DNA from: Patescibacteria group bacterium
GTDB lineage: Bacteria; Patescibacteriota; Gracilibacteria; Peribacterales; Peribacteraceae
Assembly (NCBI GenBank): GCA_038063355.1
Contig: JBBTVH010000090.1
Coordinates: 1-27,352 of the forward strand
Reading direction: 5' to 3'
DNA length: 27,352 nt
Positions 2,239 through 24,800 of this stretch are shown here, one piece after another. How positions within the stretch are numbered: the stretch's first letter is position 1; the number at the start of each line of letters is the position of its first letter. The notes beneath the pieces were generated by a model. It saw only the letters and a program-made list of their open reading frames with translations, made no database searches and was not told the DNA's origin. The position numbers and the translations under genes were made by a program.

Positions 2239-2337
2239 ATTGTTATATTGCTGTATTGCTGAACTGTTCGCAAGTGAAAGGCAAAAGGGGCAAATGCCCA
2301 CAAGCAATATAGCAATTCAACAATTTAACAATACAAT
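2239..2337. repeat. Inverted-arm octamer-repeat element between divergent pyrB and the flippase gene
   Basis: Left arm ATTGTTAT ATTGCTGT ATTGCTG (2239-2261); right arm AGCAATAT AGCAATTC AACAATTT AACAAT (from 2303). The arms are complementary at 19/22 nt. The spacer holds a small GGGC-AAAT-GCCC hairpin. Confidence 0.85.
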
Positions 2338-4241: not shown

Positions 4242-5654
4242 ATGTCCCGCCTGCGATCTCTCGCCATAGTGCTTGGATGTTTGATCCCCGTGATCACCTT
4301 TGCCGCGCCTCCGCCGGCGGTGATGGGTCTTTCGGGTACGCAGGAGGCGAATGGCGAAGTGCGCATTGAGTGGCAGCCATCCACGGATAGTTCTGTGGTT
4401 CGGTATCGCCTCTACTACAGCTCGGAATCCATTCTTGAAAGCGGCGGAGTCTATGACGACTTCGAGGAAACACAGGGGATGGAAAACGTCTACGTCTTTG
4501 TGGCGCCGCCTGTGCAGGGATCGCTCTACGTAACAGTGCTTGCGGTGAACAACCTGGGAGAAGAGAGTGAATCCTTTATAGAGGAAGTCCGTATTGATCT
4601 CGCGCAATCTTCTTCGCAGATGCCGAGGCTGGAATCATCTTCAAGCTCCACCGCACCCGCGGCCGCCGTACAGTTCTCGAGCGCGGTTTCTGTGCTCATG
4701 GTGCCCTCTTCTTCGAGTTCTTCTGCGAGCGCTCAGTCCATTCCCATGTATACCGAACCCATGGATGACGGCCGCGTGCATCTGCTTCTTGCCGAAGCTC
4801 TCTCCCCGATCCAGGTAAAGCTCACGTTCTCCAATGCTGTTATGGTGAATCCCAAGGCCGCGCCGCAGGCCTTTATGATCGTCGGCCCGGGCGGAGCTCC
4901 TCTTCCAATTACGCAACTTCTCGTGAGCGATACCATCGTTGTAGCCGACACGCAGACCCAACAGAAAGGCGTTGTCTATAACGTGAAACTCAGTGAGCCT
5001 CTGCAGGGCGCGACGGGCGAACCGCTCGATGCTACAGACCGCTCTGCGTTCTTCACGGGACATGAGCTCGGCTCCGACCAGGCGGCTCCCGCCCAGCCAC
5101 AAGCCCCCGTTGCCACAGACCCGACGAAGCCGGCGGACGTAACGGGCTTCAGCCTGCGCGCCACCCCAGAATCCGGTGGAACATATATGGTTGTGGCGCA
5201 GTGGCAGCCCGATATCACCCGCGGAGACATCGCGCACTACATCGTCCGCCAGAGCCTGGATGGCGGCCGCATGTTCGGCGAACCGCAGATGGTGCCTATG
5301 GACATCGCCGGAGTGGAATTCGCAGGCGTACAGCCCGGAATGTTTGGCATCTCACTCCAAGTGATGAACGTCTACGGAGCGACCTCAGCCGGAGTCTTTG
5401 ACTCTGTTGCGCTTCCCGGAAATGGCGTCGTGCCTACCATGCCTCTTGTTCAGGGTTCCTTGGCAGCCCCGACGTGGCCACCCGTCGGAAGCGTCATCCC
5501 GAATGAGGCAGTCCTCGCGCAGCAGCGTGCGCTCCAGGAGATTCGCTCGCGTAATCTCTCGAATTCCGGATTCGGCCTCTTTGCGGTCGGCTCCTCATGC
5601 ATCGGGGCGTATGCCGGGTGGAGGAAAGGGAAAAAGAGAGAGAAAAAGGATTGA
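4242..5654 (+). CDS. Secreted Fn3/Ig-like domain surface protein with a sortase-like C-terminal sorting signal
   Basis: Start ATG 4242 (470 aa). Signal peptide MSRLRSLAIVLGCLIPVITFA, Fn3-like motifs (IEWQP....YRLYY; VAQWQP....HYIVRQS), Ser-rich linker, Ig-like middle domain (VKLTFS), tail LSNSG + hydrophobic stretch + RKGKKREKK. Confidence 0.75.
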   Translation: MSRLRSLAIVLGCLIPVITFAAPPPAVMGLSGTQEANGEVRIEWQPSTDSSVVRYRLYYSSESILESGGVYDDFEETQGMENVYVFVAPPVQGSLYVTVLAVNNLGEESESFIEEVRIDLAQSSSQMPRLESSSSSTAPAAAVQFSSAVSVLMVPSSSSSSASAQSIPMYTEPMDDGRVHLLLAEALSPIQVKLTFSNAVMVNPKAAPQAFMIVGPGGAPLPITQLLVSDTIVVADTQTQQKGVVYNVKLSEPLQGATGEPLDATDRSAFFTGHELGSDQAAPAQPQAPVATDPTKPADVTGFSLRATPESGGTYMVVAQWQPDITRGDIAHYIVRQSLDGGRMFGEPQMVPMDIAGVEFAGVQPGMFGISLQVMNVYGATSAGVFDSVALPGNGVVPTMPLVQGSLAAPTWPPVGSVIPNEAVLAQQRALQEIRSRNLSNSGFGLFAVGSSCIGAYAGWRKGKKREKKD

Positions 5655-5704
5655 AGGGGAATAAGGGATAATCCCTTACATCCCTTATTCCCCTTATTTC
5701 CCTT
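5654..5704. repeat. Nonamer-repeat hairpin after the Fn3 gene (possible terminator)
   Basis: AAGGGGAATAAGGGAT (5654-69) is the exact reverse complement of ATCCCTTATTCCCCTT (5680-95). It is built from 9-nt units (ATCCCTTAC, ATCCCTTAT, TCCCCTTAT, TTCCCTTC). Confidence 0.8.
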
Positions 5705-5762
5705 CGGGCGGTTGTACGTTTGTACACCTGTTTTTTGGCTTGAAGATGTGTAGTTTGAAACA

Positions 5763-16370: not shown

Positions 16371-16460
16371 CCCGGCTTCGCCTCTGAGGAGGCTTCGCCG
16401 CGGTTTCCTCCATCATTATCTCCGACGGGTGCCACGGCGTAGCTCGCAAGCGGAGCCGGG
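16371..16460. repeat. 90-nt nested hairpin element directly after tRNA-Leu
   Basis: Terminal stem CCCGGCTTCG/CGGAGCCGGG (one G-U). Inner stem GCTTCGCCGCGG (16392-403) with CCACGGCGTAGC (16432-43), 10/12. GGCTTCGCC is directly repeated at 16374 and 16391. Confidence 0.75.
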
Positions 16461-17812: not shown

Positions 17813-19585
17813 TTAGGATTTATCCTCTTCAACGATCTTAATTCCCAATTCCGCAATCTGTTCCTCCGGCATAGGGCTCGGCGATCCCAGCATCAAATCT
17901 TTTGCCTTTTGGTCCTTTGGATAGGCGATGACTTCGCGGATGTTGGGCTCATTACAGAACAGCATCACGATGCGGTCTACGCCCCAAGCGATGCCGCCAT
18001 GGGGAGGGGCGCCGTACTGGAATGCGCGGAGCAGATGGCCGAAGCGCCGCTCGGCATCCCGTTTGCTGATTTTCAGGATCTCGAAAATTTTCGACTGGAG
18101 ATCGGACTCGTGGATACGGATGGAACCGCCACCGATTTCGGAACCATTGAGCACGATGTCGTAGGCGGCCGCGCGGCATTTCAGGGGATCCGTATCGAGC
18201 AATGCGCGGTCTTCGTTCTTTGGGCGCGTGAACGGATGATGGACGGCAGCAACCGCACACGTGTCTTTGTCCTTTTCAAACATCGGGAAGTCGTTCACCC
18301 AGCAGTAGGCAAAGACCTTGGGGTCTGCGAGGTTCATCCGTTTTGCCAATTCCGTGCGTACGGCGCCGAGGCTGGTACAGGCGGTATCAAACTGATCTGC
18401 GGTGAAAAAGAGGATATCGCCGTTCGCCCCTTTTGCTGCTGTTGCAACCTGCTTCGTTAGGTCATTGCCCAGCTTCTCGACGGGCACCCCTTCATAGCCG
18501 CCGTCATTTACTTTAATCCACGCGAGTCCTTTTGCGCCGTAGATTTTTGCGGTTTCGGTGAGCTCGTCGATCTCTTTGCGCGAGAACTTCGCGCCGCCGG
18601 GAACGCGGAGGCACTTCACCACTCCACCGGAGTCGACGGTCTTGGCGAAGATCCCGAAGCCCGCGCCTTTGCACAGCTCTGAAACATCGGTGAAGGCGAG
18701 ATCGAACCGGAGATCGGGCTTATCGGATCCATACGCGTTCATCGCATCGTGGTAGGTAAAGCGAGGGAAGGGCGTGCGGAGGATCTTCACGTCCGGGCGG
18801 ATTTCTTTCGTAAGCTCGATCAAAGATTCTTCCGTGAGCTTCATCACATCTTCCGGTTCCACAAAGGACATCTCCACGTCCACCTGTGTGAATTCCGGCT
18901 GACGGTCGCCGCGCTGGTCTTCATCGCGGAAACATCGGGCGATCTGCATATAGCGGTCCAGACCCGCGACCATCGTCAATTGCTTCAATTGCTGTGGGGA
19001 CTGCGGAAGCACGTAGAATTCGCCATGGTAGAGACGAGAGGGGACAAGGTACTCACGCGATCCTTCCGGCGTGCCTTTGATCAAAATCGGAGTTTCCACT
19101 TCAAGGAAATCGCGGTCGTAGAAGAACTTCCGGATCGATTGCACGATCTTGTGGCGTGTGATGATGTTCTTGCGCATGCGGTCTTTGCGCAGATCGAGAT
19201 AGCGGTATTCCAGGCGCAGCTCTTCCGAAACATCTTTATCCTGATCAATTTCAAACGGCGGAGTCTTGGCTTCGTTGAGGACGGTAATGTCACTCACGCG
19301 GATTTCAATCGCGCCGGTTGGGTTATCCTCGCGCGCGGCTCCTTCGAGGCGTTTCGTCACGGTTCCTATGATCTGGATGACCCATTCCGGACGGATATGT
19401 TCGGCTTTCGTAAAAAGCGCCTTGTCCTTCGGATCAAACACCACCTGTGTAAAGCCGTAGCGGTCTCTTAGATCGACAAAGATCAATCCGCCGTGGTCAC
19501 GACGGCGGTGTACCCAGCCCGCGAGGGTGACGGACGATTTTGCATCGTTTTCGCGAAGCTGGCCACAAGTATGAGTACGCATCAT
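17813..19585 (-). CDS. aspS: Aspartate--tRNA ligase (probably non-discriminating Asp/Asn)
   Basis: MRTHTCG.L, RRRDHGGLIFVDLRD, LPQSPQQLKQ, ARCFRDED.R.DRQPEFTQ, GAPPHGG motifs and a GAD insertion. His in RRDHGG and Gly in RLEG match the established non-discriminating signature. Start 19585 (590 aa). Confidence 0.98.
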   Translation of the reverse strand: MMRTHTCGQLRENDAKSSVTLAGWVHRRRDHGGLIFVDLRDRYGFTQVVFDPKDKALFTKAEHIRPEWVIQIIGTVTKRLEGAAREDNPTGAIEIRVSDITVLNEAKTPPFEIDQDKDVSEELRLEYRYLDLRKDRMRKNIITRHKIVQSIRKFFYDRDFLEVETPILIKGTPEGSREYLVPSRLYHGEFYVLPQSPQQLKQLTMVAGLDRYMQIARCFRDEDQRGDRQPEFTQVDVEMSFVEPEDVMKLTEESLIELTKEIRPDVKILRTPFPRFTYHDAMNAYGSDKPDLRFDLAFTDVSELCKGAGFGIFAKTVDSGGVVKCLRVPGGAKFSRKEIDELTETAKIYGAKGLAWIKVNDGGYEGVPVEKLGNDLTKQVATAAKGANGDILFFTADQFDTACTSLGAVRTELAKRMNLADPKVFAYCWVNDFPMFEKDKDTCAVAAVHHPFTRPKNEDRALLDTDPLKCRAAAYDIVLNGSEIGGGSIRIHESDLQSKIFEILKISKRDAERRFGHLLRAFQYGAPPHGGIAWGVDRIVMLFCNEPNIREVIAYPKDQKAKDLMLGSPSPMPEEQIAELGIKIVEEDKS

Positions 19586-19590
19586 GGTCG

Positions 19591-19676
19591 TTGTTATATT
19601 GTTGTATTGCTCTATTGCTCGCAAGCGATTGTGAGGCTTGTTCTCAGCAATTCAACAATCCAGCAATTCAACAATT
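19591..19676. repeat. Inverted-arm octamer-repeat element between nrdR and aspS
   Basis: Left arm TTGTTATA TTGTTGTA TTGCTCTA TTGCT (19591-619). Right arm AGCAATTCAACAATCCAGCAATTCAACAA (19646-74). The arms are complementary at 22/29 nt in an 8-nt register. The right arm contains CAGCAATTCAACAAT twice. Confidence 0.85.
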
Positions 19677-19682
19677 TTCTCG

Positions 19683-20129
19683 TTAGCGGAATAACTTTCC
19701 CAGCTCTTCTTTAAATTCCTCCACATCTTTGAATTCGCGATGAACCGATGCAAAGCGGATATAGGCGACTTTATCGATTTTATGGAGCGCCTTCATCACG
19801 TCATTTCCGATCGTTGCGCTTCCTACCTCGCCTTTATTTCCGCCCCATTTCTCCTCGAGCTTATCGAGCAGACTGTCGATATTTTCCTGGGTGACCGGCC
19901 GCTTGGTGCACGCAATCCAGATGCCGCGTTCGATCTTGCTCCGGCTATAAGGCTCGCGCGTCCCATCCCGTTTCACGACAATCAGGTTATTCAGCTCTTG
20001 GCGCTCGAACGTCGTGAACCGATGATTGCATTTCGGGCACTCGCGGCGTCTGCGGATCGCGCGGCCATCTTCGGCGATTCTTGAATCCACGACGGCAGTA
20101 TCTTCGTGCTTGCAGCGGGGACAATCCAT
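19683..20129 (-). CDS. nrdR: Transcriptional repressor NrdR
   Basis: MDCPRC....VVDSR......RRRRECPKC..RFTTFE zinc ribbon, ATP cone (VVKRDG..EP) and AYIRFASV motif. Confidence 0.98.
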   Translation of the reverse strand: MDCPRCKHEDTAVVDSRIAEDGRAIRRRRECPKCNHRFTTFERQELNNLIVVKRDGTREPYSRSKIERGIWIACTKRPVTQENIDSLLDKLEEKWGGNKGEVGSATIGNDVMKALHKIDKVAYIRFASVHREFKDVEEFKEELGKLFR

Positions 20130-20429: not shown

Positions 20430-21053
20430 TTACGAGCGGAGAATGGTCTCCGAAGTTCCTGTGCAATCTACAATCCGCGAGGTCTTGCGCAAAGGAAGGG
20501 CTCCGAAATCCAGAATCAGGTCCGGTTTCAGAGGCGCATCTTTGTATTGTTCCATGATCTCTTTGATGGAGTATGGACTCGGCTTTCCATGAAGATTGGC
20601 GGAAGTGGTGCTGATGGGGCGACCGAAGCGGGTGACAAGTTCAGAGGCGAGGGGGTGGGAGGAGACACGAACGCCGAGGGTGGGGGATGGTGAGTGGTGA
20701 GTGGTGGGATCGTGAGATCGTGAATCGGGTGTGGGGTAGAGAACGTGGGGAGGATTTTTACTCATCAGGAGGACGATCATAAGCCTTCCAGGGAGAAATT
20801 CCTGCGCCAATTTCTCTGCGCGGTCGTTCCATTCCACATATTTTTTAGCCTCTTCGATGGAAGGGAACAGCGCACTCACGGGTTGCTCGAAAGAGCGCTG
20901 CTTAATCGTGAATAATCGCTCGACTGCTTTGGGATTGCTGAGATCACATGCAAAGCCGTAGCAGGTTTCGGTGGCGTGCATGACAGTTTTCCCGTCGACA
21001 AGTGCTGCGAGAGCGGTTTCAATCCCTTCGGGGGTGGCAGGAAGAATGCGCAT
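20430..21053 (-). CDS. tsaC: L-threonylcarbamoyladenylate synthase (YrdC/TsaC type)
   Basis: TETCYG.ACD, K.R....P, GVRVS, STTSANLHG and SRIVD motifs. Single-domain form, 207 aa. Confidence 0.93.
   Translation of the reverse strand: MRILPATPEGIETALAALVDGKTVMHATETCYGFACDLSNPKAVERLFTIKQRSFEQPVSALFPSIEEAKKYVEWNDRAEKLAQEFLPGRLMIVLLMSKNPPHVLYPTPDSRSHDPTTHHSPSPTLGVRVSSHPLASELVTRFGRPISTTSANLHGKPSPYSIKEIMEQYKDAPLKPDLILDFGALPLRKTSRIVDCTGTSETILRS
20679..20727. repeat. (NTGGTGA)n/GATCGTGA repeat tract inside tsaC
   Basis: GATGGTGA GTGGTGA GTGGTGG GATCGTGA GATCGTGA. Encodes DSRSHDPTTHHSPSPT just before the GVRV motif. Confidence 0.85.
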
Positions 21054-21892: not shown

Positions 21893-24800
21893 TTAGGCGA
21901 CCATATGCTCCGCGATGGCATCCTCTACTTTCTTCTCCAAAATCGTCGAGGTGGTCACGGTGAGCGGCAAGCCGATTGTCTGTGCGCCGATTTTAAGCTG
22001 CACCTTTTCGCTGCCGGGGAACATCTCGAGGACGCGCTTGAGATCAAGCAGCAGTTTCTTCGGCGCGCGCTCGGGGAGGTCGATGGTGTAGATCCTGATT
22101 GGGGAGTTGGAGGCTGCTTCCTTTACCACAGAGGATTGTTTGTTGGTTTGCTGGTTTGTTGGTTTGCTGGTTGTCGATGTCATTGTAGATCCGGAACCGG
22201 ATGCATCGATCAGTCCCAAAACTGCGAGCTCTTTATCCGTCGGCATACCCTGGAGAATCCACTTGCCGATGGGGCCGAAGAAATCATCTGTGCCATTTTC
22301 TACCACTGTATTTTCGAGTGTCACGACTTCACCGGCGATGACGTTGCCCTCTTCATCCACCACTTCGATGGCTTCTGCTTCTACCTGCGGCCGCACCAGC
22401 CGGATGCCCTGCTTGGCCTCATCCTCATCGAAGAATCCCGCCTCTTTCGCTTTAGTGATCATTGTCGTTATGGAGGCGCGTTTTACGGCGTCTACGCGCA
22501 TCTGGAGCACCCCAGCGCGCACATCCAGAATACCCGCAACTACCAAAACAGTATCAGGCTGCTCCAGAAACGCCGCGGCATCGGCAAACGTACGTGGGAA
22601 GAGTGTTACTTCGATTTTCCCCGTGGGGTCCTCCAAAAACACGATTGCCATCGTCTCGCCTTTCTTCGTAGTGATGCGCTTGACGCCGCCGACGATGCCG
22701 GCGAGGGTGATCTTCTTTCCGGCGTCCTCCCGCGTGAGATTGGCGATGAGCTGCGCCTTCTTACTGATGTATTTCTTCAAACCCGCGAGCGGATGGCTGC
22801 TTACATACATGCCGAGCGTTTCCTTTTCCCATTGTAGTGCTTGCTGCCGGGAGGCGGGCGCTGTCTTGGGGAAGGAGATCCGTGCCTCCTCGATGTTCGC
22901 CGCTCCGAAGAGATCCCCTTGGGAATGGCTCACGCCTCCGGCTGCCTTGGCGTAGTCGACGATCAGATTGTAGTGCTCCACAAGCGTTCCGCGTTCCCCA
23001 AGGGAATCGAGCGCTCCGGATTTGGCGAGCGATTCGAGAAGCTTTTTATTGAGCGCCTTCGTAGGAACACGGCGCGCAAAATCATCCAGACTTTCGAATT
23101 TCTTCTCTCCTCGCGCGGCGATTATCTGCTCCACGGAACTATTGCCGATTCCTTTCACCGCCGAAAGCCCGAAGCGGATGGAGCCGGGAGTGGTGGATGG
23201 TGAATGGTGAGTGGTGAGTGGTGAGCGGGGAGATTGGGAGTCGGAAAGAATCGCGGTGAAGTGCCGCAGGGATTCGTTGATATCGGGTGGAAGCACGGCG
23301 ATACCCATTGCGCGGCATTCCTCGATCTCGATCATCACGCGGTCTGTATCGGCGGCGTCACTACTAAGAAGCGCAGCCATGAACTCCGTCGGGTAGTTCG
23401 CCTTTAAGTACGCGGTCTCGTAGGCGATCTTGGCGTACCCCGCGGCGTGGGACTTGTTGAAGCCGTATCCGGCAAAGGGGGTCACGACATCATCAAAAAT
23501 TTGCTCGGCGAGTTGCCGCTTGTATCCCTTGTTTACGGAGCCTACAAGAAACTTCTCGCGCTGGGAAGAGAGCTCCTCTTTGATCTTCTTTCCGATGGCG
23601 CGGCGCAGAATATCCGCTTCGCCCAAACTGAACCCGGCAAATGTGCGGGCGATCTCCAGAATCTGCTCCTGGTACACACCGATGCCGTAGGTGGGCTCAA
23701 GAATCGTACGAAGATCTTTGTGGAGGTAGCGGATGTCTTCCTGACCGTGCTTGCGTTTGATGTACTGGGGGATCCAATCCATCGGGCCCGGGCGATACAG
23801 GGCCACCATCGCGACGATGTCATTGAATGCGGTCGGTTTGAGCTGCTTGAGATACCGACGCATGCCAGCAGATTCCAACTGGAACACTCCGGTCGTATCG
23901 CCACGCTGCAGCAGCCCAAACGCCCCTGGGTCGTTTCCCGGGATTTTGGTGATATCAATACGGTTCCCCGACAGGCGCTCAATAATCTCCAGCGTCGTCT
24001 GGATGACCGTGAGGTTCATGAGTCCTAGGAAGTCCATCTTCAGAAGACCGAGGGACTCGAGCGGCTTTGCCGCGGTCTGCGTGATGATGATGTTTTCATC
24101 CTTGGGGGCGCGCTGGAGCGCCGTGTAATGCACTGCGGGTTCGGGCGTGATGATCACGCCGCACGCGTGCACCGAAACGTGACGTGCTTTGCCCTCAAGC
24201 TTCCTAGCTGCGTCAAAAATACGGCGATAGATTTCGTTTTCCCGATAGACCGATTGTAATTCCTGCGTATTCAGAGCTTCCTCAAGCGTCGTTCCCGGAC
24301 GATCGGGGATGAGTTTCACGAGCGCGTTCATCTCCAGGAAGGGCACGCCGTACGCGCGGCCAACATCCTTCACTGCGGCACGCGCTGCGAGTGTTCCGAA
24401 CGTGCAAATCTGTACGACGTGGTCCTGGCCGTACTTTTCGCGGACGTATTCCAGCACTTCATCTCTGCGTGTATCGGCGAAGTCGATGTCCACGTCCGGC
24501 ATGGAGATGCGTTCAGGGTTCAAAAAGCGTTCGAAGAGGAGTCCGTGTTCCATCGGGTCCAAGCCTGTGATCCCGAGGCAATACGAGACAATCGACCCCG
24601 CGGCGCTGCCACGCCCCGGGCCCACAGTGATGCCGCGACGCTTCGCTTCGTTCACAAAATCCGCGACAATGAGGAAGTATCCGGAGAAGCCAACCTGCTC
24701 GATGATTTTGAGCTCATAATCCATCCGCTCCTGATGTTCCTGGGTGGGATTGGGATACTTCTTCGCAAATCCCTCCTCTGTTAGCCTGTGGAGCTCCTTA

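Follow-up and report, generated by a model that had tools for sequence, protein, structure and literature searches.

A hairpin-shaped octamer repeat in the nrdR-aspS gap of a Peribacteria genome: most likely a gene-less copy of a four-helix-bundle cassette

Bacterial MITEs, such as Correia, ERIC and RUP, are short, non-coding and dispersed, carry terminal inverted repeats and expand in lineage-specific bursts. In the REPIN/RAYT system (Bertels and Rainey 2011, PMC3337134), a non-autonomous doublet of inverted repeats surrounds a variable spacer, and a single-copy gene is flanked by its own type of repeat, with several such specific gene-repeat pairs per genome. The S23p intervening sequence (IVS) in the 23S rRNA of Coxiella burnetii holds an open reading frame within a stem whose inverted termini carry short tandem repeats, and is excised by RNase III (PMC4990558). 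Intergenic arrays of heptamers near gene ends, for which no mechanism was given, have been described in Beggiatoaceae (PMC4679880) and in Xanthomonas and Nostoc, those of Xanthomonas including inverted pairs (PMC4692102). Finally, the Avd protein of diversity-generating retroelements forms a pentamer, every subunit of which takes part in gripping an RNA stem-loop (bioRxiv 10.1101/2023.10.23.563531; PMC10053308). Literature searches returned no description of the element analyzed in the following.

The window, that is, the whole stretch of 27,352 nucleotides studied here, is contig C90 of genome G000, an assembly of 1.13 Mb (87% complete) from a very small groundwater bacterium whose closest NrdR relatives are those of Ca. 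Peribacteria. The element, an 86-base hairpin-shaped repeat, occupies positions 19590-19675, in the gap between nrdR (19683..20129, minus strand) and the co-oriented aspS, the aspartate-tRNA ligase gene, downstream of it (17813..19585, minus strand, ATG at 19585). Read along the plus strand, it consists of arm A (19590..19618), which is the arm on the core side and faces the aspS start at a distance of 4-5 nt; a conserved inner core, TCGCAAGCGA, which is a 4-2-4 palindrome (19619..19628); a variable loop (19629..19644), at the position where the four-helix-bundle gene sits in full cassettes; and arm B (19645..19675), inverted relative to arm A. Each arm comprises approximately 3.5 octamer units in about 28-31 nt, and the octamer consensus, read outward, is CAAT-NN-A-R, with six fixed and two free bases. 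Copies in general share this anatomy, namely an arm of 3-4 octamer units, a palindromic core of 9-10 nt, a variable loop and an inverted arm. Since arm B ends 7 nt from the nrdR stop, the aspS element is equally near a stop and a start. The first-pass annotation had suggested that the arms could form a periodic imperfect hairpin, and the minus strand is indeed predicted to fold into one that ends approximately 5 nt before the aspS ATG (-27.2 kcal/mol, z -2.75). A promoter scan found nothing within the element.

The same annotation had taken the element for the second copy of a repeat family first seen beside pyrB, with a nearly identical leader. Both leaders read as quoted, their alignment showing 1 mismatch and 2 single-base gaps, and the notion of one repeat family is borne out, but on a larger scale: the genome holds 56 arms forming 25 outward-facing pairs (0 in a Markov-4 control), with loops mostly of 17-56 nt, and the aspS element is one of these 25. 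The pyrB copy (2239..2336, plus strand; degenerate core at 2268-2276) lies where pyrB and a polysaccharide flippase-like gene diverge, and matches the aspS arm less well (23/28) than five other copies do (24-26/28). Copies are found between divergent genes, between convergent genes and in frame within one gene. The in-frame copy (C57:2803-2888) is complete and adds approximately 29 residues to an O-antigen-ligase-like gene; G003 has an in-frame copy at the corresponding position, and the two loops are equally long. The 11 nt at 19617-27 are, as had been noted, identical to 16442-52 in the hairpin that follows tRNA-Leu, but this 11-mer occurs 20 times in the genome, and the post-tRNA hairpin (16435..16458, plus strand) belongs to a separate family of 3 copies in G000, which has only a 9-nt core in common with the octamer-arm elements. 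The core also trails at least 4 unrelated repeat types in G000.

Several related repeats were observed along the way. Seven GTAG-type REP hairpins (G000 contigs C4, C12, C30, C85, C192 and C196) have the same core of 8-9 nt attached, as do heptamer and nonamer arms, and one core-tagged hairpin of the GTAG type sits after a RAYT-like gene (C196:640-1191). A sister family built of CCAT octamers (C12, C24, C28, C35, C47, C56, C113, C133, C151, C156, C175, C176) has a homologous loop of approximately 51 nt, which diverges much faster than its arms and core. In the window itself, a nonamer-arm element lies at 5645-5704, where G005 has a different, heptamer-arm element and which one strain contig skips; heptamer arrays of other families lie in or near genes at 76-110, 333-381, 20673-20706 and 23183-23230; and the segment 16285-16736 holds tRNA-Leu, palindromic repeats and a small ORF that looks GIY-YIG-like by eye, the same junction being much shorter in G005.

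In our opinion, the aspS element most likely represents selfish DNA, a small cassette copy devoid of its gene, rather than a switch for a neighboring gene. We are highly confident that it is a miniature of the cassette family and not an aspS-specific switch, and we consider it probable that the best overall description is that of a gene-less miniature of a PF05635 cassette, working within a REPIN/RAYT-like system. Namely, on contig C130 of G000 a PF05635/TIGR02436 gene, with PF05635 as the sole match, is bracketed by the same octamer arms, and the other four PF05635 genes of this genome with readable flanks have each its own arm word. The clade of the C130 gene (support 100/100) is found in 26 of the 200 family genomes. 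An automatic call assigns period-8 arms to 26 of its 28 rows, and the remaining two show octamer arms by eye; over the protein tree as a whole, arm period changes 8 times, compared with 21 after shuffling. Genes of this clade occupy approximately 19 different junctions in 27 copies. What is more, the core, exact or with one mismatch, lies inside the 5' arm of 4 of the 27 cassettes, with a variant longer by 1 nt in 4 more, and in the 3' arm of one, so that, with several cassettes of the clade carrying it at the inner arm edge, the core belongs to the cassette end; the C130 cassette of G000 is itself without it. The parent cassette would thus read arm, core, Avd-like four-helix-bundle gene (PF05635/TIGR02436), inverted arm.

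As for the distribution of the miniatures, the 21-nt word made of arm plus core is present in 33 of the 200 family genomes, in bursts of up to 24 copies and with 0 control matches; outside the family it was found in 1 of the 260 genomes searched, and viral contigs gave 0 exact matches. Over 199 family genomes (G000 left out, and kin not being independent), the cognate gene is present in 15 of the 32 with miniatures and 10 of the 167 others, an odds ratio (OR) of 13.9, and a genus-level count of the link gives p of about 1e-3. All 5 genomes with at least 10 miniature copies have the cognate gene. Control PF05635 subfamilies give weaker associations (OR 3.2 and 4.9; 1/5 and 2/5 of the genomes with at least 10 copies), and the link to the cognate gene persists when only genomes carrying other subfamilies are considered (OR 21). 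In 17 of the 32 miniature-bearing genomes no cognate gene is visible, owing to incomplete assemblies or loss. Finally, the free dinucleotide of the miniatures is that of the resident cassette in G045, G195 and G047.

How does this locus compare with the described systems? Like REPINs, it has a variable spacer enclosed by two inverted repeats, exists in many extragenic copies, 25 outward pairs here, and is specifically linked to a single-copy gene that has this repeat on its flanks, control subfamilies being less strongly associated. Unlike in that system, the partner is an Avd-like four-helix-bundle protein without a transposase match, while RAYT is a HUH/Y1 tyrosine transposase; the arms are tandem octamers, while REP units are GTAG-headed palindromes; and the resident gene sits at many junctions. 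The RAYT-like gene of these genomes does not co-occur with the miniatures, and as a partner it was rejected (OR 1.5, p=0.33; 1/5 of burst genomes). No catalytic gene was found within the cassette, nor are Y1 genes directly flanked by these octamer arms; an IS200-like Y1 transposase of G000 (C112:1451-1813) has terminal hairpins of its own. Short length, terminal inverted repeats, dispersal, lack of coding capacity and bursts confined to lineages are shared with MITEs, from which the element differs in its periodic, imperfect arms and in that the gene with the same ends matches PF05635 only, with no cognate DDE transposase. In addition, no target duplication was seen at nrdR-aspS, pyrB or C67, where relatives are strongly diverged; with identity at four-fold sites down to 56% even for the nearest relative, a duplication could have been erased.

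With the Coxiella IVS the cognate cassette shares the protein family located inside an inverted-repeat stem; for the nrdR-aspS copy such a stem is predicted. The difference is that the present elements lie outside rRNA, in gaps between protein genes or, once, in frame within such a gene, and that the nrdR-aspS copy has no ORF, the PF05635 ORF being present in the cognate cassette. Heptamer arrays are also different. Here the units are octamers, arms almost always come in pairs, the core is fixed, a gene clade is linked to the arms, and there is no bias toward start codons, unlike in Beggiatoaceae. As to Avd, the cognate PF05635 protein has a homologous fold and matches PDB 2GSC weakly (E 0.001). 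Unlike in diversity-generating retroelements, no reverse transcriptase was found, with no PF00078 match in the 87%-complete G000, and the loops show no adenine-biased variation: adenine-directed hypermutation was considered and rejected, as loop A columns are no more variable than others. As a separate observation, a palindrome, TG(T/A)AC-N4-GTACA, occurs in 18 copies (window 5713-5726; G000 C26, C72, C83, C123, C130, C196, C206) before comEC-like, ssb-like, comM-like and yraN-like genes, three four-helix-bundle genes and a Y1 transposase, most of these named by eye, and is a candidate operator for competence or DNA damage.

Filled and empty sites in relatives bear on the history of the element. 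In G003, G004 and G005 the nrdR-aspS gap is 17-18 nt long, lacks the element and instead holds a -10 box, placed 7-8 nt ahead of the ATG; since G000 nests among these three congeners, the element was gained on its own branch; the dating of this gain is loose, given the divergence of the nearest relative. At the pyrB site, five congeners have no element, and at other junctions each congener holds a different arm family. A strain that is approximately 95% identical spans the aspS element without a gap, and one strain is tentatively without apparent differences over 2210-2372, near-identical tracts existing elsewhere too. In some orthologous copies, which were selected by the search pattern, arms are approximately 86% identical as against 38% at four-fold sites, and this persistence suggests selection or refreshing. 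At two orthologous sites the core is flipped along with the loop: in G003 the core of loci L031 and L043 lies on the opposite side from that of C192:2403-2476 and C52:511-584 in G000, suggesting inversion between the arms or re-insertion. Some kind of inverted 7-9-mer array is present at 215 of 848 junctions according to a loose detector, and, because about a quarter of junctions hold some arms, we claim no junction hot spot for the miniatures. The orientation of copies relative to replication gave no signal (6:5) in a weak test limited to contigs with usable skew.

In some relatives, the nrdR-aspS junction itself is occupied by cassettes. In particular, a full, co-oriented four-helix-bundle cassette follows nrdR in 8 of 80 relatives scattered over the tree, one of which, that of G089, is of the cognate clade. 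At the seven cassette junctions where the aspS start is visible, the arm lies at or close to the ATG. The TANNNT box, which relatives carry 6-8 nt before the aspS ATG and which G000 lacks, is present at 0 of these 7 junctions versus 38 of 50 others (p=2e-4). Sharing this state, with the arm flush to the start and no -10 box, aspS of G000 is probably read through from upstream, and the loss of its box points to co-transcription with nrdR. At the same gap in G006, G001 and G002 (L234, L235, L236), a single heptamer arm ends in TANNNT 8 nt before the aspS ATG, and may there supply the -10 box.

Taken together with the analogy to REPIN/RAYT, these observations suggest how the element may work. Each arm family would have one resident gene, flanked by its own repeat words, plus gene-less doublets. 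An oligomeric four-helix-bundle protein would read the octamer words, with their six fixed and two free bases, and would help the element in copying or insertion, the cutting or copying being done by a separate enzyme in trans. At the nrdR-aspS gap, where the element was gained, the host's short spacer was lost together with the aspS -10 box, the gene then probably being read from upstream. Whether miniatures are copied as such with the help of the cognate protein is, in our judgment, evenly balanced. More tentatively, and with somewhat less than even confidence, the system may be a selfish one whose resident protein is Avd-like and non-catalytic, each PF05635 clade reading its own arm word of 7, 8 or 9 bases and in this way supporting the spread of cassette and miniatures through an enzyme acting in trans.

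It is possible, though unlikely, that only full cassettes move and that the miniatures are leftovers after deletion of the gene between the arms, never having moved by themselves. Besides the cognate-clade cassette at nrdR-aspS in G089 and the likeness of the G000 aspS start to the seven cassette junctions, one can point to L249, a gene-less locus with nonamer arms and no -10 box, which is sister to the cassette-bearing L306 at this same junction. What is more, the CAAT loops of G000 range from 17 to 56 nt and are barely homologous (-0.41 vs -0.48), and because of this heterogeneity the nrdR-aspS copy in particular may be such an in-place relic. However, up to 24 miniatures accompany a mostly single gene, and in G118, G195 and G045 dispersed copies have loops of the same length and sequence. 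Within-genome loop homology is 0.35 in G118, 0.06 in G195, -0.12 in G045 and -0.19 in G162, compared with about -0.35 to -0.39 after shuffling, and the 12 sister-family copies of G000 likewise share loops equal in length and sequence. Such sharing counts against relics, as independent deletions should not produce it.

Would our conclusion be different if the host made use of the element in RNA processing? One could argue that RNase III cuts the stem as it cuts the 23S rRNA intervening sequence, leaving an aspS 5' end a few bases from the ATG, and that selection keeps the element for this reason. We regard this as improbable in the role of the main explanation, although a processing role can be secondary to the cassette miniature that we favor. 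The enzyme is encoded in G000; the heptamer-armed IVS of Coxiella is excised by it (PMC4990558); cassette junctions are without the aspS box; and orthologous arms are conserved, with the 95%-identical strain spanning the element. In addition, in host genes of G000 TANNNT peaks 6-8 nt before the ATG whereas a Shine-Dalgarno peak is missing, a pattern which, with starts called by our own simple gene finder and hence with some error, points to mostly leaderless genes, and in a leaderless host processing by RNase III would make such insertions tolerable. That said, no signal of use at the RNA level was found. On the sense strand there is no bias of G-U over A-C pairs (25:19 and 53:55), nor is that strand the more stable one (9/25 and 14/39). 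Covariation is absent as well, own-arm complementarity being 0.654 versus 0.652 between copies in G000 (p=0.47), and 0.632 versus 0.650 for arms from different copies in 69 other copies, which suggests that the octamer words are kept as sequence and not as RNA pairs. Finally, copies lie between divergent and convergent genes and, in one instance, in frame inside a gene.

The same null tests argue against a translational switch or regulator-binding leader common to aspS and pyrB, the reading offered by the first-pass annotation, which we find very improbable. It is true that the predicted stem covers the leader up to approximately 5 nt from the ATG, that arms with a terminal TATAA unit tend to be start-facing (a non-significant 10:3 in other genomes), and that a like role has been proposed for Beggiatoaceae heptamers (PMC4679880). 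The element was said to have a defined end next to start codons. In G000, however, the start-facing share of arm ends is 25 of 40, with a background of 55% (p=0.34), and ends within 15 nt number 13 of 24 when facing a start and 12 of 14 when facing a stop. Ten other genomes, with 80 copies between them, give 77 start-facing and 64 stop-facing ends, which is the background rate, and ends within 15 nt are more frequent at stops than at starts (50% vs 30%, p=0.016). The 11-nt leader word, for which a genome-wide test of enrichment near start codons had been suggested, occurs 10 times; all of these lie within the repeat, and 4 have an in-frame start within 10 nt. A cis-regulatory RNA is expected to be conserved upstream of orthologues, yet the element is absent from congeners at both aspS and pyrB. 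Core orientation is unrelated to transcription (12:9 in G000 and 20:19) and flips at orthologous sites, the genes next to the copies have no common function, and Rfam returns only tRNA-Leu and a chance match. Two further candidates were rejected: the core as a CUUG or GNRA tetraloop on mRNA, there being no strand polarity, and the arm as a replacement for the canonical -10 box, for which the outer unit is at the right distance in approximately 5 starts, but TANNNC shows no enrichment ahead of start codons (ratio 1.05 versus 3.4 for TANNNT). On comparison of sequences, the switch reading thus appears largely refuted.

Finally, a local origin of the arms from slippage and template switching, without any mobile element, is hardly credible, for, while arrays at about a quarter of junctions and the loops flipped at two orthologous sites would fit this, it is already contradicted by the shared core, with the same arm-plus-core word in 33 of the 200 family genomes and in no control, by the fixed 3-4 units and by the tie to one gene clade.

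Viewed as a switch of aspS, the element is ordinary and not supported, and leaders of this type should not be read as regulatory. Viewed as a cassette miniature, it touches on the PF05635 'four helix bundle' proteins, which are widespread and without a known function. If each clade of these proteins does read its own word, PF05635 would gain a function, and many families of bacterial heptamer and octamer repeats would be explained. The pairing of one protein clade, one arm word and bursts of miniatures allows a direct test, namely that each protein should bind the word of its own clade but not that of another.
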